Shown piece by piece: positions 1 to 40,413 of a stretch of 64,000 bases of DNA. The notes beneath the pieces are model-generated. The model was given only the letters and a program-made list of their open reading frames with translations. It ran no database searches and was not told the DNA's origin. Source of the stretch: Candidatus Adlerbacteria bacterium GW2011_GWA1_54_10 (GTDB lineage Bacteria; Patescibacteriota; Minisyncoccia; Phycocordibacterales; SBAW01). Every line of letters begins with the position of its first letter. Position 1 is the first letter of the stretch. A program made the translations under genes and the position numbers. Location of the stretch: positions 63,984-127,983 of the forward strand of contig LCRO01000003.1 in the NCBI GenBank assembly GCA_001004665.1, in the 5' to 3' direction.

Positions 1-385
1 CCATCTACCAAACCAACCACATATTCTGGACTAAGATTTTTCATTGAGTGGGTCCTTTTTCTTTCGAATACTATGACCCAGCTGACTTCTGACGCTGCGT
101 CAGATTCATTATACCCCGATTTTCGGGGTAACAGCGTCAGATCTCCACAGGTTACGAGCACTTCTGTTCCAAACATCCACTGCGGGATTTTCTTAGTTCT
201 TCCCTACCCTCACCGCCCACTGGTAGGTCGAACGCCCTTTAGTTTGCAGAGGCTGCTTTTTGCGTCCGGGCCCTCCGGCACTACCCTCACGGATATATGC
301 TTGCCCTTTTGCTACGCCTCGACGACGAAATCGAGGGTACGGATTTTAACCGCATAGAAGTGCGCGCTGCTGTGCGCGTTTATTG
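1..385 (-). other. Non-canonical segment at 3' end of 16S: probable insertion/intron (3' exon would lie beyond window start)
   Basis: Sequence after the 1390-region block lacks the near-invariant GCCCGTCACACC decoding-centre and GGATCACCTCCTT anti-SD blocks; contains an inverted repeat ctgacgctg...cagcgtcag. Confidence 0.4.
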
Positions 386-1647
386 TGAGTACAAGACTTG
401 AGAACGTATTCACCGCGGTATAGCTGACCCGCGATTACTAGCGATTCCGGCTTCATGAGGGCGAGTTGCAGCCCTCAATCCGAGACATGCTGATCTGGCG
501 TCATCCCCACCTTCCTCCCCCGTGAGGGGGCAGTCTCGCCTGACATTTAAAACAGGCAACAGGGGTTGCGTTCGTTACCCCACTGAAGGGAACAGTTCAA
601 ACCACGAACTGACGACGACCATGCATCACCTGCCAAGCCGCCTTTCGGGGACTCTGGTTTCCCAAAGTTTTCGTCTTGGTTTCAAACCCTGGTGAGGTTC
701 TTCGTTTGTCATCGAATTGAGCCGCATGATCCACCGCTTGTGCAAGTCCCCGTCTATTCCTTTGAGTTTTAATCTTGCGATCGTACTACCCAGGCGCACG
801 ACTTAACGCGTTAGCTTCGCCTCGCAGAGGGTCGATACTCCGCAAAGCCAGTCGTGATCGTTTAGGGCTACGAATACCGGGGTATCTAATCCCGTTCTCT
901 CCCGTAGCTTTCGTGTTTCAGCGTCAGGAGCGCGCCAGCAAAGTGCCTTCGCATTTGGTGTTCCCCATGATATCAACGGATTTCACCCCTACACCATGAG
1001 TTCCCTTTGCCTCTCGCGTCCTCTTAAAGCCGTGCCGTTTCCGCCGCATTCCACGGGTTGAGCCCGCGGGCTTTTACGAACGGACTAACATGGCCGCCTA
1101 CACACCCTTTACGCCCAGTGATTCCGGATAATGCTCGGGGCCTCTGTATTACCGCTCCTGCTGGCACAGAGTTAGGAGCCCCTTATTCATGCGCTAACGT
1201 CAATTACTTCCTCACGCATAAAAGCTGTTTACGTCCCGAAGGACTTCGTCCAGCACGCGGCGTCGCATGGTCAGGCTTTCGCCCATTGCCAAATATTCTC
1301 GACTGCAGCCACCCGTAGGTGTATGGGCCGTGTCTCAGTCCCATCGGTGGGGGTCAGCCTCTCAGCTCCCCTAGGCGTCGTAGCCACGGTAGGCCGTTAC
1401 CCTACCGTCTAGCTGATGCCCCGCAGGCCGCTCAAAGAGCGCGTTGCCGCTTTACCCTTCGACTTGCGTCTCAGGGACTATCGGGAATTACCCAACCTTT
1501 CGGCTGGCTATGCCCGACTCTTCGGTGCGTACCTGCGTATTACTACCTCGTCTGCCGGTTTACTTCGGTCTTGCGACTTCAGCATCCCATGACTTGCATG
1601 CCTTATCCACGCCGCTAGCATTCATCCTGAGCTAGGATCAAACTCTG
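1..1647 (-). rRNA. rrs: 16S rRNA; 5' end AGAGTTTGATCC... at ~1647; canonical alignment traceable down to ~385 (E. coli ~1390), 3' terminal domain not recognisable in 1-385
   Basis: Reverse complement of conserved 16S blocks: ggatcaaactct (1636-1647), ttaccgc..ctgctggcac (~1150-1170, 515 region), ggggtatctaatcc (~875, 806 region), acgtattcaccgcgg..cgattactagcgattcc (~395-440, 1350-1390 region). Confidence 0.85.
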
Positions 1648-2105
1648 AATAATTGCGAAGCAATTATTCACCCTGAGGTTACTCGAAGGGTGAATACACC
1701 TCGCAACCTAACTCGATATGACCCCTCGATACCGCCTTGCGGCGGTCCTCGGGGTGCTCAATTTTGTTACCGCTTACGCGGACAAAATTGGCAACGGAAC
1801 AAGAGAAAGATGCACCAGCCTATGGCTGGCGAAACAACTAGTCTCTTGTTTAACTTACTTACTTTAGATCGGTGTGATCTAGAACTTTTTCCTCTCCCGC
1901 TGCTCGGGATCGGAAATTTTTATTCGCTGTTGTCAAAAAACAAACCGCCGTCGGCGGTGCTCTCAAGACCTTGAGATTTCACCGTTAAGCAGTCATGGGT
2001 TCCAGTATAGCCCCTCTGAAGCGGATGTCAATGAAAAAATAAGGGCCGCTTGCGGTTACAAGCGGCCCAAGTCCAGGGAGGAAACGCCCAGGGTGGGCAC
2101 CTTCA

Positions 2106-2684
2106 CTATACCCCCACTTTCCGGAGCGCAACCTCGACCTGTTGATAAAGGTCCTCCCGCGTGCCGTCGTTCCGGAGCACCGAGTCAGCCATGGCGATAA
2201 CGGCCTTGAGATTCTGTTTGGAGGGATTGGTATTTTCCCATTCTCGTTGCTCATCAGCTTGAAATTTTTCAAACGATATTTTGTCTGTTTCCGACATACG
2301 CTTGGCAATTCTTTCGTATCGTTTTTGGACATCCGCATCAACCGCCCACAAAAGCGCTTGATGTGATTTCAAATATCCAGCCTCTCCGATTGAACGGATT
2401 GATTCTATAACGGTGCCGCTACCGTCTTCGAGCGCTCGACCAAGCAACTGCTCAGTAATATATCCGGAACCATGCATGGCGCGCAGATCGTTGGCGACTT
2501 CGGTCATTGTATCGCGACTTGACTCAAGACCCCGCCTCGCAATTTCTTCGTTCAAAAAATCGCGCACAGAAAAATGCCTGAACCCCTTGGTGTTGACCAG
2601 GTATTCGACTACCGTTCCTTTTCCAGCGCCCAGAGTTCCTGTAATTCCGATAATCATTTCTTTCGATTGGAAAACCGCTCCCAC
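2106..2684 (-). CDS. P-loop nucleotide kinase, adenylate-kinase-like (GITGTLGAGKGT Walker A)
   Basis: 192-aa ORF; Walker A GAGKGT followed by H-x-S-x-R/D segment as in NMP kinases. Confidence 0.5.
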   Translation of the reverse strand: MGAVFQSKEMIIGITGTLGAGKGTVVEYLVNTKGFRHFSVRDFLNEEIARRGLESSRDTMTEVANDLRAMHGSGYITEQLLGRALEDGSGTVIESIRSIGEAGYLKSHQALLWAVDADVQKRYERIAKRMSETDKISFEKFQADEQREWENTNPSKQNLKAVIAMADSVLRNDGTREDLYQQVEVALRKVGV

Positions 2685-3573: not shown

Positions 3574-4853
3574 TCAGCGACTGGTAAAACCGGATTTCAG
3601 TAAAAATCGTCCGAACGGCTTCTCCGCATTTATGCCGAGTGCGAGAAGAAAAGTTCGCGAGATAGTTATCGCCGACAGCATGGAAACAAGGACACCTATA
3701 CCGAAAACGAGTGCAAATCCCTTGATAAGGGACGTCCCGAACCAAAACAGTATTACAGCGGCAATGATGTGCGCAAAGTTGCTGTCGCGGATAGCGAGCC
3801 ATGCTCGCGCAAATCCCTCGCGAATGGCAGATTCCGCCTTTTTGCCGGCCGCAAGTTCTTCTTTAATGCGCTCGGCAATGAGGATGTTTGCGTCAACCGC
3901 AAGCCCCACAGAAAGTATGAAGGCGGCTATGCCCGCGGCAGTCAGCACCACCGGAATAAGCTTGAAGAGCGCGAGCATAAGCACGACGTATATTACGAGT
4001 GCGAATACAGCTACAAGCCCCGGCAGACGGTACCAAAGGATCATAAAGACCGACAATACGGCAAAGCCGGCAAGTCCGGCAAAGAGGCCGGCGCGCAGCG
4101 CGGTCTCTCCCAATATCGCGCCTATTGTCTGCGTGCTCTGCAATTCTATGGGCACGGGCAGGGCCCCCAGGTTGAGTCCGCGCACGAGCTCGCGCGCGGA
4201 CTCCGCAGTGAAATTGCCGGAGATTACTGCACTACCGCCGTCTATGCGCTCTCTGACGACGGGGGCGGATATTCCCCGCCCGTCAAGGAATATGGCGATG
4301 TATCCTCGCGCGACGAGTATTTGACTAAGGAACTCGCGGATCTTGAGGGGTCAAAAGAGAAACTGGAGGAAATGATGGACGAACTTGAGGGGTCTCCATG
4401 CTCGTCGGAAACATTTTTTTCGAATTCCTTTTTGACCAGCTTAAACTCAAGTAGGGGCGTCCGGCCTATCATCGCTGTCGCCTCCTCGATGTCGGTAACG
4501 CCCGGCAGCTCGACAACGAGCCGGTGCTCGCCCTGTCCAAGCGCCCCGCCCTGCTCCGTCTCTACAACCGGCTCGCCCACTCCGAAGGCGTTCACGCGCC
4601 GCTCGATGACCTCGCGGAGCGTCCCTAGTGAATCCGCGATGTCTTCCGATTTTAGCTTGCTCGTATCCGCGCGATAGACAAGATGAGTGCCTCCGGAGAG
4701 ATCAAGCCCCAATTTAAAATCAAACCGCCCGCCGCCGCCTGTTGTGACCCATACAAAAAAGCCAATGACGGCCGATGCTATAAGGATCAAAATGGCGCTG
4801 TACCGCAACCAAAACATGATAGGCAGGATAACAGAGATTGAATTTTTTGCCAA
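3574..4853 (-). CDS. secD: Protein translocase subunit SecD, interrupted by one frameshift (N-part 4433-4853, C-part 3574-4185+)
   Basis: N-terminal ORF has TM1 + LGLDLSGG motif then an out-of-frame Ser/Pro-rich tail; C-terminal ORF has SecD TM bundle. Frame change coincides with an A7/T7 homopolymer at 4418-4424. Confidence 0.75.
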
Positions 4854-7041: not shown

Positions 7042-7978
7042 ATGAGCAAAAAGAAAGTTTTGTACGTAATAACGAAAGGCAATTGGGGCGGCGCACAGCG
7101 CTATGTCTTTGACCTTGCTACAGGTCTGCCAAAAGACGAATTCGAGGTCGCAGTTGCGCTCGGAGAGCCTGCCTTGTCAGCAGGCAAACCGGGTCTGCTG
7201 GCGGATAAGTTAAAATCGGCAAGTGTCATGATATATTATATCAGTTCGCTTGGGCGTGATGTTTCGTTCGGAAAAGATACGACAAGTTTTTTTGAGCTAT
7301 ACCGGTTGTTTAAAAAAGAAAAGCCCGACATAGCGCATTTGAATTCGAGTAAAGCTGGCGGCGTGGGCGCGCTACTGGCCGTTTTGGGAGCAGAGAAATT
7401 TCTTAATGCGCGGCGCGATATGGTTCTTCTCCTGGCTTACGGCGCTCCTCTCGCATACGGTTATCGTCATCTCTGACTACGATCTGCGCGTCGCGCGGCG
7501 GATGCCCTTCGTGAGCAGGAAAACAGTGCGTATATACAATGGTATCGGCCTGGAGACACTTGGTACGGGAAAAATGATCAGAAGCGCGTTTCCGCCGGGA
7601 GCGGTGATAACCGGAACTATAGGCGAGTTAAATAAAAACAAAAACCAACAAGTGCTTATCGAGCAGGCAAAAAACAACTCCAGCATGTTCGTCGCCATAG
7701 TCGGCGAGGGCGAGGAGCGCGGGCATCTTGAAGAAAAAATAAAAAAATATAATTTGAACGATCGGGTGCCTGCAAGCGAGGCACTGCGGGGCTTCGACGT
7801 CTTTGCCCTGCCATCGCTTAAAGAAGGCCTGCCGTACGTATTGTTGGAAGCGAAGCTCGCGGGACTTCCCATATTGGCGAACCACGTCGGTGGTGTCGGG
7901 GAAATATTGGACAACAAAAATCCAGGCGAATTCTCGCTCAAACAAATGCTCCTAAAAACGCTCGCGCTATATCGTTAA
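7042..7978 (+). CDS. GT4-family glycosyltransferase, split by a frameshift near 7400-7480
   Basis: ORF 6886-7476 holds the GT4 N-domain (start trimmed to MSKKKVLYVITKG); ORF 7406-7978 holds the GT1 C-domain (EGLPYVLLEAKLAGLPIL). Confidence 0.65.
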
Positions 7979-10020: not shown

Positions 10021-10264
10021 AAAACAGAAGGTCCAAACTAACCCTTCGACAAAGCCTCAGGGGTAATTTTATAAAACAAAATCAACAACAGATTATTGCG
10101 ACTCTCAATCCATTTCCCCTCCATAAATTGCGAAGGGTTGCCCAAAAGGGGCCGGAACATCGATCGATTAGTATTCCTCGGCTCAATGCCTTGCGGCACG
10201 TACACCTAGAACCTATCAACGTGGTCATCTCCCACGGATCTTAATGATTCCTCATCTTGAAGTT

Positions 10265-10299
<35 letters not shown>

Positions 10300-10442
10300 T
10301 CCCGACATAGCTACCCAGCGGTCCCCTTGGCAGGAGAGCTGGTAGACCAGCGGTCAGTTCCTTCCGGTCCTCTCGTACTAGGAAGAACTCTTCTCAAGAA
10401 TCGACGCCTGCAGTAGATAGGAGACCAACCTGTCTCACGCAT

Positions 10443-11160
10443 CTATCGACTCGAAACGAATCAAGTCTTCCCACATTACTGTGGGGATTGGACTATACCT
10501 TCATCCCTAAATTAGGGAGACCGACGTGTAGTCTCTACGGGGTCAGCACTCGCTTAAGGCGCTTCTTTGAGTAATTTAACTCACCGAAACGATCTATCAT
10601 TTTCATCAACTTTTTGAACTCTCGTTCAGACTTTATAGTCTGTCGATACTCGAGAATCTCAAGCATTAGCTTTATTTGCTCCCGTTTTAGAACCGAATGT
10701 GGTTCTACAGCAATTAAAAATTCTTTAATTGCATCGGTCTTGCCAATAATGTATTCGATAACTCCGTCACTGCGCTCCCGGATATACCCGGACCCCACAA
10801 GACCACATAATTTTTCGAATAGCTTTTTAGCCTTTTGCGATTGAAAAAATACCACATACGGCGCAACCTGAAATCCATACTTATAGGTAGAATTAGGTTT
10901 GAGCCGCACATAAATACTTCCGTCGCCGTCTAAAAAGCCGGCAAGATATGCTTTGGTTGTTGACGAAAGCGGTTGCATGACTTCCCTCGGTATTATCCTA
11001 CCATACGACAGGTTAGGATTCCACCGATATAGTCGGTTTCTCACTGTGGATTACTCCTCAGTGCCGCCGTGAACATTCTTAACAGTGTGGTTCCAAACGT
11101 CACCACGTTTCCTCGCGGGTTCAGACAGTTCAAATTCCAAATTTCTTTAGGACCTGAACG
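10443..11160 (-). mobile_element. Group I-type intron in 23S rRNA domain V (E. coli ~2570-2595 region) carrying a homing endonuclease ORF
   Basis: 5' exon ends ...GCTGGGTTCAGAC (rc 11161-11173); 3' exon resumes ATGCGTGAGACAGGTTGGTCTCCTATC (rc 10416-10442). Intervening ~718 nt has no 23S homology and contains the LAGLIDADG ORF. Confidence 0.7.
10535..11044 (-). CDS. LAGLIDADG homing endonuclease (single-motif, I-CreI-like)
   Basis: [20 protein letters not shown]... motif; ~150-169 aa; likely start at MQPLSS (10978). Lies inside the 23S intron. Confidence 0.85.
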
Positions 11161-13312
11161 GTCTGAACCCAGCTCGCGTATCTTTTTAAATGGCGAACAG
11201 CCATACCCTTGGGAGCTTCTCCACCCCCGGGATAAGATGAGCCGACATCGAGGTGCTCTAATGCGGATGGTCGGTTCACTATGTCCTGCTTTCGCACCTG
11301 CTCGGCATTTACGCCTTGCAGTCAAGCTCCCTTTTGCCATTACGCTATCGGCACGGTTTCCATTCGCGCCTAGGGAACCTTAATGAACTCCTCCGTTACT
11401 TTTTAGGAGGATAGCGCCCCACTAAAACTGCCCACCAGATAATGTCTCGAACGCGTTTTGCGCGTCCGGTTAGTACATACAATTTTACAGAGTGGTATTT
11501 CACTGACGAGTCCGCGGCGCCCGAAAGCACCGCCTCAACCTCTCCCACCTATGCTACGCAACAAAGCCGCATGCACAATATCAAGCTACAGTAAAGCTTC
11601 TGGGGTCTTTTCGTCTAACTGCAGGTAACCGGCATCTTCACCGGTATTGTATTTTCACCGAGCGGTACTCCGAGACAGTTCCCCAGTCGTTACACTATTC
11701 GTGCGCGTCTGAACTTACCAGACAAGGAATTTCGCTTTTCGCTTCCTGTGGGCGAAGGACCATGTCTTCTTCCGTTCTGGAAGCACGGCGTATGGTCTCT
11801 TATGTGAGCCGCGTGTTTTTTAGGACCTTCTACATATTCCTATGTAGAGAAGTAGCTTTTTGTGTAACTTTTTCGCTATTTACCCGATTCTGTAATAGTC
11901 CTAGTCCTTCCCTGCTCGATTGCTCAAGCAGAGAACCTTAGGACGATTATAGTTATCGCCGACATTCACCAGGGCTTATATAGCTCGGCCCTCCAATCTT
12001 GCGATCAAAGGACGGGCCATATTTGACCTTCTGGCATTGGTCAAGTGTCACCTCCTATACATCCCCTTACGGGTTCGCAGGAAGCTGTGTTTTTGGTAAA
12101 CAGTCGCCAGGGATACTTTCGCTGCGGCCGCGCTCGCGCGCGGCAGGCCTTATTCCGAAGGTACGGCCGATTTTTTGCCGAGTTCCTTGGAGTACTCTCA
12201 CTCGTTCGCCTTGCTCTACTCGAGCTGCACACCTGTGTCGGTTTGCGGTACGGTCGTACGACCCATATAGTTTAGAAGTTTTTCTTGGAAGCCTCTTCGC
12301 AGTGGTCCTCTCAGGCGAACCTGAAAGTGCCCCGATGCTTCGACAGCGCAAAGCGGATTTTCCTGCCTTGCAAGTCTTCGGCTACGGACGCCAATCCAAT
12401 AAGGCGCCACTGTTTATGTGCTCCGTCCCTCCATCACTGAGTCGCCGGTGTGGGAATATTAACCCACTGTCCATTACCTGCGGCTTTCGCCATCGGCTTA
12501 GGACCGACTAACCCTACTCTGATCACCGTTGAGTAGGAAACCTTGTGCTTTCGGCGTGCGGGGATCTCACCCGCATTGCGGTTACTTGTGCCTGCATTCT
12601 CACTTCGCAACGCTCCACTGCGGCTCACGCCTTCAGCTTCATCGCGGATGCGAACGCTCTCTTACCACTCGTCCTTTGATTGCTCTCAGGACGAATCCTC
12701 AGTTTCGGTACTACGTTTTAGCCCCGATTATCTTCGGCGCGAGATCTCTCGATGAGTGAGCTGTTACGCTTTCTTTCAATGATGGCTGCTTCTAAGCCAA
12801 CATCCTCATTGTCTTCGAGACTTCACCTCCTTGTGATGCACTTAACGTAGATTTTGGGACCTTAACTTGAGATCTAGGACTCTTCTCCTTTTGTACGGTG
12901 GAGCTTAGCCCCCACGTACTAACTGCCGCATAACGCAAACGGTATTCGGAGTTTGATAGGATGAGCGAGCTTTCGCCCTGTCTCATCCTTCCAGTGCTCT
13001 ACCCCCGTCTGCCAATCAATGCGACGCCAGCCCAAAAGCTGTTTCAGAGAGAACCAGCTATTACAAGGTTCGATTAGCTTTTCACTCCAACCCACAAGTC
13101 ATCCGAGAGTTTTGAACGGCTCAACGGTTCGGGCCTCCGCGCTATTCACGCTCGCTTTCGCTACACCTCCGCCCTAGCGGGCTTAAGTCTATGCGGCATA
13201 CGGTAACTCGCAGGCTCATTCTTCAATAGGCACGCCGTCGAGGCTTCGATTACTCTCGGCCTCTTCGACTCTTTGTAGACATATGGTTTCAGATCTATTT
13301 CACTCCCCTTCC

Positions 13313-13358
<46 letters not shown>

Positions 13359-14061
13359 TTTGAAAGTATGTAGCCTTACCGGTTAGTTCCGGCAAATTCA
13401 CTCAAGCCATTCGTGTCTTGAGCTACTCAAGGACATTGCAGAAGTTGCTGCAGTTTCGCCTACGGGGCCTTCACCCTCTTGGGCCGCGCTTCCCAGCGCG
13501 TTCGGCTACCGCAGCAATTTGTAACTTCTTGGCCATTCGATTTCTCTCAGGCCTATCAATGCCTTATAACCCTGAAAATTTCCCGAACCCCTCGAACTAC
13601 CAAGGAGTTTGGGAAACTTTGCAGTTTGGGCTCACATTCGCGTTCGCTCGCCGCTACTGACGAAATACCTATTGGTCTCTTTTCCTCTCGGTACTGAGAT
13701 GTTTCACTTCCCGAGGTCTGCTCCCCGCATTACTGCGGGGTACTGGAGATTTCGCTCCAGTGAGTTTCCTCATTCGGACATCTCCGGATCGAAGGTTGCT
13801 TGGCACCTCCCCGGAGCGTATCGCCGCCACGCCGCGTCCTTCATCGCCTTTCAAAGCCAAGGCATCCACCATACGCCCTTATTAGTTCCAACCTCTTTTG
13901 GGAGATTGAGAACCGCAATAATCTGTTGTTTATAAGCAGAAATGCTGCGCATTTCTGCCAATACATTTGTTACCTACCCACCTCCATAGCGCACAAAAAG
14001 ACCCACACGAAGTGCGCCGCGTGGTGGAATTTAGTTGTTAAGGTACAAGATACGCGAGAAC

Positions 14062-39336: not shown

Positions 39337-40413
39337 CTACTTCGCCTCCCCCTCCGGAGTCAAACCCTTTTTTGCAAGCGCTCGCGTTTTTTCCTTGTCT
39401 ATGTCGGCCACAAACTCCTGCACTGCGGCGGCAATGGGCACGGAAAGCAAAATGCCGAGAAATCCGGCGAGTTTGGCTCCCACGATAAGCGCTAGGATGA
39501 CAAGCAGGGGAGGAACGCCAACGACCTTTTTGACGACTACCGGATAAATAAGGTGCGCTTCGAACTGCTGTACGATGACATAAAGCCCTCCGACAAGCAG
39601 AAGCGCCGTGAATCCGCCATCGGCGAAGGCGATCGCAAGCGCCGGTATCGCCGCGAGGAACTGCCCGAATACCGGAATCAACTCAAACACCGCAGCCAGC
39701 ACAGCAAGCAGGAGGGCGTTCGGTATACCGAGTATCATGAGCCCCATGTAAAGTAGTATGCCGACAATTATTCCGAGTATCAGCTGTCCCTGCATCCATT
39801 TCCCTATCTTTCCCTGCGAGCGTTTCCAGAGATTGAGCACATAGGCCTGATGCGCCGTCGGCGTAACCACGCGCAAAAAATCGTCTACACCCGTCTCTTG
39901 CACGGAAAAGTAAAAGGAAAAAACTACGATGAGTACAAACGAGGTGAGTCCGCCGAAGAACGCCGAGAGCGTCGTGAAGACGCCGCCAGTCGTCTCGGCT
40001 AGGGTCGCGGAAACATTGCGCAGGAGCTCGGCGGAAGAAATGTTCTGCCCGATATTGCCCCACGGCAAAAGCCCGCCGGTCACATCGGTGATGTTGAGCG
40101 ACTGTATGGTTTCGGGGAGCTTCGCCACAAAATTGGCGGCATCGTCTAAGACCGGCGGCACAAAGAATATAAGCGTGCCGAAGAAGACTGAGGCCACGAA
40201 CGCGTATATGACTATCACCGAAAGTACCCTGTGCAAGCCCCTCCGCATAAAAAACCGGACCGCAGGCTCCATTGCCGAGGCTATGACAACCGCCGTGATG
40301 ACAATAAGCACCACGTCCATAAGGTACCAAAGTATCGCGGCAAGTAGAATAAAAAGCAGAGCGGTAAAGATGCTCCCGCCCGTTATGTGGACGTTAATAT
40401 CCCGCGAGACCAT
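39337..40413 (-). CDS. AI-2E family transporter (PerM/YhhT-like)
   Basis: 358 aa, 8 TM helices; PF01594-like conserved core. Confidence 0.7.
   Translation of the reverse strand: MVSRDINVHITGGSIFTALLFILLAAILWYLMDVVLIVITAVVIASAMEPAVRFFMRRGLHRVLSVIVIYAFVASVFFGTLIFFVPPVLDDAANFVAKLPETIQSLNITDVTGGLLPWGNIGQNISSAELLRNVSATLAETTGGVFTTLSAFFGGLTSFVLIVVFSFYFSVQETGVDDFLRVVTPTAHQAYVLNLWKRSQGKIGKWMQGQLILGIIVGILLYMGLMILGIPNALLLAVLAAVFELIPVFGQFLAAIPALAIAFADGGFTALLLVGGLYVIVQQFEAHLIYPVVVKKVVGVPPLLVILALIVGAKLAGFLGILLSVPIAAAVQEFVADIDKEKTRALAKKGLTPEGEAK

Follow-up and report, generated by a model that had tools for sequence, protein, structure and literature searches.

A probable group II-type intron with a LAGLIDADG endonuclease gene that interrupts 16S rRNA in a Candidatus Adlerbacteria genome

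The sequence described here, called the window, is a stretch of 64,000 nucleotides (nt) from Candidatus Adlerbacteria bacterium GW2011_GWA1_54_10 (contig LCRO01000003.1, positions 63,984 to 127,983). It carries a 16S rRNA gene on the minus strand, and the gene is interrupted close to the window start. Window positions 1-384, read on the minus strand, are very probably the 5' part of an 843-nt group II-type intron, nearest to the bacterial class IIC, which sits at C1399/C1400 (E. coli numbering) of that gene. The RNA of the intron folds into six domains, I to VI (D1 to D6), and D4 bears a gene for a 144-aa protein of the LAGLIDADG_1 family. The intron is probably mobile and self-splicing. The features of the gene and of the intron that lie in the window are as follows; L001 is a sister contig described below, and percentages refer to an alignment of 54 homologues.

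385..1653, minus strand: 16S rRNA 5' exon (E. coli 1 to C1399), matched by RF00177, with a 96-nt gap at 483/484
385..389, minus strand: intron-binding site 1 (IBS1), the last five exon bases CUCAC, complementary to the GUGAG loop of exon-binding site 1 (EBS1) and ending exactly at the junction
1..384, minus strand: putative intron 5' part, the first 384 of 843 nt, assigned by identity to L001; the remainder lies beyond the window start
378..384, minus strand: 5' leader AAUAAAC, the 5-nt AAUAA plus AC at the place of the canonical G1U2; AAUAAAA or AAUAAAC is nearly invariant in the 54 homologues
375..377, minus strand: GCG, remnant of positions 3-5 of GUGYG, invariant and directly abutting helix I(i)
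146..374, minus strand: Domain I, with closing helices I(i) and I(ii) and branches IA, IB, IC and ID, from the RNAalifold consensus
209..213, minus strand: EBS1 GUGAG, on the 3' side of the ID terminal loop, in the invariant block GGUGAG; a covarying 6-bp stem closes the loop
84..145, minus strand: Domain II, basal helix 99.2% paired, within the RF01998 match
80..83, minus strand: J2/3 linker AGCU, inside the invariant block AGAAGUCAGCU, which fits the RF01998 consensus UCAGCAGA
50..79, minus strand: Domain III, GGGUC AUAGUA UUC GAAA GAA AAAG GACCC, outer stem 92.6% paired with 4/5 pairs covarying
42..48, minus strand: predicted 5' strand of the Domain IV basal stem, CUCAAUG, start codon included, forming 7 bp with CAUUGAG at L001 13139-13145
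1..44, minus strand: intron open reading frame (ORF), first 14 codons and 2 nt, MKNLSPEYVVGLVD.., running into the LAGLIDADG motif; start codon 44-42

The 16S rRNA gene and its insertion

A bacterial 16S rRNA is matched on the minus strand from window position 1653 downwards (Rfam RF00177, 1068 bits). The posterior probability of the small subunit (SSU) rRNA model is high from 1653 to ~386, and the last confident stretch reads ...GAAUACGUUCUCAAGUCUUGUACUCA / GGUGAAUACGUUCUCAAGUCUUGUACUCA. Past ~386 the model jumps 106 positions and puts window 338-385 on helix 45 (h45) and the 3' tail, with a posterior probability of only 0.4-0.5; this alignment, seen in a closer scan that covered window 1-760, is forced and is no real match. 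The decoding-centre block CCGCCCGTCACACC (up to two mismatches) was not found in window 1-385, and its sole match in the window, at 40073, is at chance level. Elsewhere in the window the conserved 16S block GGCTACACACGTGCTACAATGG (up to three mismatches) has no match. A permuted or fragmented 16S gene was considered and rejected, as the missing blocks gave no match elsewhere in the window, or matches at chance level only.

A sequence-only reading had been made from the letters of this DNA. It followed canonical 16S sequence from the 5' end to about ~395-440, saw it stop short of the 3' terminal domain, and proposed an insertion near ~1395-1400 with its 3' exon beyond the window start. The stop is borne out by the SSU model and by the decoding-centre search. 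The boundary was roughly right and is now sharper, with the exon ending at 385 and the intron starting at 384. The canonical part is indeed followed from the 5' end by RF00177, but a 96-nt gap at 483/484 had been missed. The covariance-model check which that reading proposed shows that 1-385 is not canonical h44-h45, and in a sister contig that continues past the window start a 3' exon resumes, at 71 bits; the outcome of the refuting condition set by that reading, the lack of a 3' exon, thus favors an insertion.

The 5' exon ends with ...CUUGUACUCAC at window 385, and the first intron base is 384. Window 385 is taken to be E. coli C1399, by the register of the 1392-1406 universal primer. The U at 1396 is matched by an A at 921 (GGAAUAGACGG in the window 16S, where the E. 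coli reference has GGAAUUGACGG), and this compensation indicates that the exon sequence is genuine.

Most of D4, all of D5 and D6 and the 3' exon were read from sister contigs, which are 100% identical to the window over its first 483 nt. The sister contigs were found by an exact-protein look-up with the kinase-like gene at window 2106-2657, which gave six public contigs. One of them, L001 (LCRP01000001.1, assembly GCA_001004725.1), belongs to Candidatus Adlerbacteria bacterium GW2011_GWA2_54_12. Window 1-483 is 100% identical to L001 12271-12753, with window position = 12754 - L001 position. The full insertion has 843 nt (L001 12370-13212). Directly after it, from L001 13213, the 3' exon reads CGCCCGUCA / CGCCCGTCA / CGCCCGUCAAGUC.., followed by a shortened h44, then AAGUCGUAACAAGG, h45 and the 16S 3' end. 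This exon alone matches the SSU model at ~1390-1533 (71 bits, E 2.6e-20). L002, L003, L004 and L006 carry this 3' exon as well. Together with L001 they make five near-identical contigs, and they support the proposed insertion at ~1395-1400 and the position of its 3' exon past the window start.

The predicted ligated 36-mer, ...AAUACGUUCUCAAGUCUUGUACUCAC|CGCCCGUCAA..., has an exact match in at least 120 intronless metagenome contigs. The 16S rRNA spliced in silico (1494 nt) is colinear with intron-less 16S genes, for example that of L095 (88.4% identity over 1490 nt), and intron-bearing relatives are about equally distant from it (L020, 89.9%). Carriers and non-carriers are thus interleaved among similarly distant relatives, which is the pattern expected of a mobile element. 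Ligation of the exons is suggested by the sequence, and the exact junction that it would form occurs as intron-less alleles.

Fold of the intron RNA and its endonuclease gene

Homologues were sought in one genome per species, which gave 63 loci. An ORF-bearing insertion lies at the identical 16S site in all 58 loci that have both exon anchors paired. These 58 loci are all Patescibacteria, mostly of the Parcubacteria type. Paired anchors are lacking in six loci: L038, L055, L060 and L065 display the 5' junction at this site, the first three of these also the 3' exon-intron junction, and L046 and L068 begin inside the ORF, so that the 3' junction alone is visible. L038, labelled Gammaproteobacteria, was considered as a link to the Thiotrichaceae and rejected; its exons are of the CPR (candidate phyla radiation) type and it is probably mis-binned.

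The RNA 5' of the ORF was aligned for 54 sequences and the RNA 3' of the ORF for 50. The D1-D3 fold was derived from an RNAalifold consensus and a curated structure, with a slid partner strand and 500 shuffles as controls. It contains 86 pairs, of which 70 show compensatory changes, and 93.6% of the cells are paired. The covariation score is 0.547, as against at most 0.118 for the slid controls, and none of the 500 shuffles reaches the observed values. For D5 and D6 together, 97.2% of the cells are paired and 14/22 pairs are compensatory in the 50 homologues (slid controls 34-48%). The six-domain architecture of group II introns is present: I(i)/I(ii) close a D1 with several branches, and D2 to D6 follow.

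The helices of D1 (1-11) are 76-100% paired, with compensatory changes in most pairs. Helix I(i), formed by 374-370 with 150-146, is 100% paired and four of its five pairs covary. EBS1 (GUGAG) and IBS1 (CUCAC) would form 5 bp that end exactly at C1399, a junction set independently by rRNA homology. Both elements are invariant in the 54 homologues save L024, where GUGGG still pairs via G.U, and covariation cannot apply to them. The inverted repeat which the sequence-only reading had pointed out (ctgacgctg at 140-132, cagcgtcag at 97-89, minus strand) is real and forms the basal helix of D2. In D3, CAUAGUA and GAAGG fit the consensus of RF01998 (group-II-D1D4-1). This Rfam model matches D2, J2/3 and D3 of the window copy with 26.5 bits and reaches 35.4-49.1 bits (gathering score 35) in 7/20 orthologous introns; the lower score of the window copy is explained by the short tips of its D2 and D3. 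The J2/3 linker and the invariant last intron base, U, would be compatible with a gamma-gamma' pairing.

The CAUUGAG strand of the D4 basal stem contains the UGA stop codon, and in the window copy the stem would enclose both AUG and UGA. Over the family the stem has a mean duplex dG of -9.9 kcal/mol and a mean z of -1.5, with z < -2 in 15/54 loci. With this modest family support, the stem may sequester the start and stop codons of the ORF. In one subfamily (L008, L009, L011-L014 and L016) AAA, AAG or AGG stands where D4 otherwise has its basal AUG; there the ORF apparently begins at an AUG in the D3 loop and is ~7 residues longer (MQKRTHSK...).

D5 is a 35-nt hairpin 3' of the stop codon. Its base, CUCGC/GUGGG, is invariant and contains a C-G-C triad whose G forms a G.U wobble, likewise invariant. 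Class IIC introns have this CGC type of triad. Above the triad follow five pairs (four freely covarying) and a 2-nt bulge in the 3' strand; an upper helix of 4 bp then leads to a GAAAN loop. Such a layout is that of domain V. D6 is a 3+5-bp hairpin followed by three bases, mostly AAU, with the final U invariant, which fits the 3' AY rule. A variant with ~50 extra nt after the ORF and UUUUAGGGGAAC in place of the D5 3' strand was seen in the introns of L019, L022, L042, L043, L054 and L067.

The intron ORF begins with MKNLSPEYVVGLVDG.., leads into the LAGLIDADG motif and then runs off the window. The full ORF (L001 12710-13144, 144 aa) lies between D3 and D5, in D4, and is annotated in GenBank as LAGLIDADG homing endonuclease (KKW36341.1). 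Its product matches Pfam LAGLIDADG_1 with 53.9 bits and has a single motif. In the intron no second ORF and no reverse-transcriptase domain was found. The ORF has 1347 homologues at E <= 1e-5, and the best 120 of these 1347 have 144-191 aa, most of them 144-155. In 20 aligned homologues the residues D14, G15, E16 and G17 of the motif YVVGLVDGEG are invariant, as is a C-terminal M-H. The family profile matches each half of the two-domain structures of I-LtrI, I-OnuI and I-SmaMI (E 2e-33) and also the single-domain rRNA-intron endonucleases 5gkk and 3e54. The endonuclease gene is intact and under purifying selection.

Interpretation, rival explanations and neighboring features

The window copy of the 16S gene lacks 96 nt at 483/484 (minus strand), equal to L001 12175-12270 and E. 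coli ~1207-1302, which include the conserved GCUACAAUGG strand and h41. These 96 nt are present in all five sisters that cover the site (L001-L004, L006) and in intron-less relatives. The deletion junction was sought in metagenome contigs and was not found. The window differs from its sisters by several block changes and only 3 point mismatches (~4304-4389, 7374, 7768, 11118-11257). A replaced segment splits SecD into ORFs 3574-4185 and 4242-4853, whereas the sisters have no such split. The GT4 glycosyltransferase gene (7042-7978) has an 18-nt and a 47-nt deletion, the latter breaking the frame. In the 23S gene 84 nt are lost at ~11256, beside a 124-nt stretch (~11118-11241) that is common to L002 and L004 and absent from L001. 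As the 96-nt gap occurs together with frame-breaking SecD and glycosyltransferase defects that the sisters do not have, it is, with the other block differences, probably a local assembly error in the source of the window; it may instead belong to a real defective variant.

The gap is the one point in favor of a decaying rRNA pseudogene, an alternative which the sequence-only reading had kept and in which the 3' part would be merely degenerate sequence: the lost conserved strand (1220-1240) and h41 belong to the 3' major domain. The remainder of the gene nevertheless scores 1068 bits, five near-identical assemblies have the 96 nt as well as an intact 3' exon, and the block defects of SecD and GT4, like the gap itself, are peculiar to the window. 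The non-canonical part is moreover a conserved structured RNA with an intact ORF, common to 63 other species. A pseudogene is thus distinctly improbable, and the suggestion is not supported for the 3' domain. An intervening sequence excised by RNase III or another nuclease without religation, which would leave a fragmented 16S rRNA and the group II-like fold as a relic, is improbable as well. Such excision is known from bacterial 23S genes and suspected in CPR (PMC11270868). The missing G1U2 and branch A, and a D5/D6 not recognized by RF00029, would also suit a relic. The intron, however, folds without a long helix between its two ends, and it sits not at a helix tip but in the single-stranded decoding-centre strand, where a break would be severe; C1399-C1400 lies in an unpaired part of the established 16S structure. 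The catalytic base of D5, J2/3 and EBS1 are invariant and 70/86 pairs of D1-D3 are compensatory across 54 lineages, and this combination points to selection on a ribozyme.

A group I intron carrying the LAGLIDADG gene is highly improbable. It would be the commonest arrangement for LAGLIDADG genes and also for rRNA insertions of CPR, and group I accounts for ~35% of the 16S insertions in CPR (PMC11270868). In the window itself the 23S gene bears a group I-like core beside another LAGLIDADG ORF (RF00028, 36.2 bits). RF00028 has no match at E <= 10 over the whole 16S intron, however. At the borders, C is the last exon base and an invariant U the last intron base, where group I would have U...G, and the fold backed by covariation is that of D1-D6, with the triad-and-bulge hairpin of D5 and the RF01998 match. 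Of the two types, group I or group II, which the sequence-only reading had left side by side, group II-like is the one that stands.

Several features weigh against a group II-type intron at this locus. The 5' end is not GUGYG: it reads AAUAA-A(A/C)-GCG, in which G3-Y4-G5 alone are kept, 5 nt inside the intron. The 3' strand of D6 is fully paired and has no bulged A, the sole conserved bulge being an AA on the 5' strand, and the loop of D5 has five bases and is no GNRA tetraloop. RF00029, the model of D5/D6, does not match this intron at E <= 10 or any of 20 homologues at E <= 0.01, and the RF01998 score of the window copy is below the gathering score. The bases of EBS1-IBS1, EBS3 and gamma-gamma' are invariant and thus beyond the reach of covariation. 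Most of D4, with D5, D6 and the 3' exon, is borrowed from sister contigs, and splicing and cleavage at this locus are predictions from sequence and fold. Comparable departures are on record: in rRNA-borne group II introns that carry endonuclease genes, EBS2 and the branch motif have been lost and splicing takes place 1-33 nt upstream of GUGYG (PMC4424553), a '5' terminal linker' is described for the family rns-1396, and a non-canonical D6 does not always preclude branching (both PMC13190283).

For a group II-type intron the following course may be proposed. The pre-16S transcript would fold, and EBS1 (GUGAG) would dock on IBS1 (CUCAC) and so choose the 5' splice site. The ribozyme would then cut and join the exons, ...GUACUCAC-CGCCCGUCA..., and restore the decoding-centre strand C1399-C1400. 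Given the 5-nt leader before a degenerate GUGYG and the lack of a bulged A in D6, the 5' junction would probably be cut by water (hydrolysis) and not by branching. At the DNA level a homodimer of the endonuclease would cut intron-less 16S rDNA at the same site, GTACTCAC|CGCCCGTCA, and double-strand-break repair would copy the intron in (DNA homing), with no reverse transcriptase involved. Cleavage and dimerization have been demonstrated for I-ShaI, another CPR endonuclease (PMC11270868).

The intron would thus place a selfish ribozyme and an endonuclease in the decoding-centre strand of the 16S gene, which in CPR is usually present in a single copy (PMC11270868), and ribosome biogenesis in these cells would depend on accurate splicing. 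The insertion also explains annotation trouble, as 16S callers truncate or force-align such genes. Primers around 1392-1406 fail on such organisms, and contigs often break there.

The rRNA genes of the window are unlinked and in an unusual order, all on the minus strand: 23S (13892-10160), 5S (10023-9910), ~8 kb of protein genes, and the 16S from 1653. The protein genes between 5S and 16S are those for FtsW, GT4, Bac_transf, FolD, SecD and SecF, and the kinase-like gene. Near its 3' end the 23S gene (10160-13892, minus strand) has an insertion with a LAGLIDADG_1 ORF (~10679-11122, 147 aa, Pfam 45.2 bits), followed by the group I-like core mentioned above (10469-10670, RF00028 36.2 bits, E 3e-7, gathering score 50). 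A match to Rfam suhB/mmgR (RF00519, window 2028-2105, minus strand, 62.1 bits, gathering score 41) lies immediately past the kinase-like gene's stop codon; at its end is a hairpin with a U run that resembles a terminator. The suhB/mmgR family is described from alphaproteobacteria, and a match in CPR is thus unexpected.

The 16S leader CUUUCUCUUGUUCCG (window 1795-1809, minus strand) and the trailer CGGAACAAGAGAAAG (L001 13518-13532) are exact reverse complements of each other and likely form a precursor processing stem around the entire gene including the intron. The 16S 3' tail has GGAACAAUUCAAAG (L001 13328-13341) in place of GGAUCACCUCCUU. Among the homologous loci with a readable 16S 3' end the canonical GGAUCACCUCCUU tail is found in L024 only; nearly all others read GGAWNWWUUCAA, with no CCUCC directly 3' of h45, which marks a lineage without anti-Shine-Dalgarno sequence. 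A second insertion between h45 and the CCUCC at L001 13482 was considered and rejected for this reason. The distal CCCUCC is part of a hairpin that immediately precedes the precursor processing stem.

Comparison with known introns

Brown et al. (2015) are said to have been the first to see such insertions, in the same Rifle groundwater genomes. That 16S insertions are established in CPR, as the sequence-only reading held, is documented by Tsurumaki (2024, PMC11270868). In that study group II-like insertions of CPR occur only at 16S position 1400 (site 16IS9), 39/53 encode LAGLIDADG and there is no reverse transcriptase. The same paper, which classed the 16IS9 insertions by Rfam matches only, cites Brown et al. 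2015 for their presence in groundwater CPR genomes and their removal from transcripts (PMC11270868). The genome described here is not named in the accessible part of its supplement text. The present intron shares with 16IS9 the CPR host, the C1399/C1400 site, LAGLIDADG_1, a single-domain protein of ~144 aa, the lack of a reverse transcriptase and the same Rfam group II model family. No differences were found, and the locus is a member of 16IS9.

Introns of the rns-1396 type were reportedly found in the 16S rRNA of Thiotrichaceae by Salman et al. in 2012. The family is given by Liu et al. (2026, PMC13190283) as exclusive to the Thiotrichaceae; in their description its backbone is of class IIC, DIV encodes a single-motif endonuclease, a linker stands at the 5' end and EBS2 is missing. 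The CPR intron resembles it in a 16S site 3-4 nt apart (E. coli numbering), a compact IIC-type backbone and a single-motif LAGLIDADG gene in D4. In both a terminal linker precedes the conserved 5' motif, and exon recognition, predicted in the case of the CPR intron, is through IBS1/IBS3 alone, no EBS2 being reported. The difference lies in the host, Gammaproteobacteria versus Patescibacteria; the comparison is with the published description. The traits of the 16IS9/rns-1396 group are all present here, namely the site, the single-motif ORF in D4, the lack of a reverse transcriptase and the conserved AAUAA leader. It is conceivable, although doubtful at present, that the position-1400 introns of Patescibacteria, and not those of Thiotrichaceae, are the main reservoir of the bacterial 16S group II family with LAGLIDADG homing endonucleases, and that they form a distinct IIC-derived subclass (fixed AAUAA leader, no G1U2, GAAAN loop in D5, AA bulge on the 5' strand of D6) in which the splicing of an essential 16S rRNA with a single gene copy is obligately hydrolytic or assisted by the endonuclease or host factors.

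Fungal mitochondrial rRNA introns of class IIB1, most of which encode LAGLIDADG proteins, reportedly have 5'-terminal insertions and have lost the branch point (Li, Costa, Michel and colleagues in 2011; Toor and Zimmerly in 2002). They resemble the CPR intron in their location in rRNA genes, an endonuclease instead of a reverse transcriptase, splicing upstream of GUGYG, and the lack of a branch A and of EBS2 (PMC4424553). The fungal I-LtrI, I-OnuI and I-SmaMI are also the best match of the endonuclease profile. The fungal introns differ in being organellar, in their AGC triad and in usually having double-motif endonucleases, whereas the compact CPR intron, located in a free bacterial genome, combines a CGC triad with a single-motif endonuclease.

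With canonical IIC introns the CPR intron shares the small D1, the CGC triad with G.U, and the D2/J2-3/D3 block ...CAGAAGUCAGC..GUCAUAGUA...GAAGGAC. A likeness to O.i.I1 of Oceanobacillus iheyensis itself is presumed and serves as a lead only. The CPR intron lacks the initial GUGYG, the bulged A of D6 and the reverse-transcriptase gene of canonical IIC introns, and unlike them it is not inserted after a terminator hairpin. In comparison with these systems the element is already known and the locus is ordinary for its lineage; what is added here is a domain-level, covariation-tested structure of the CPR intron and the very large size of the family in Patescibacteria.

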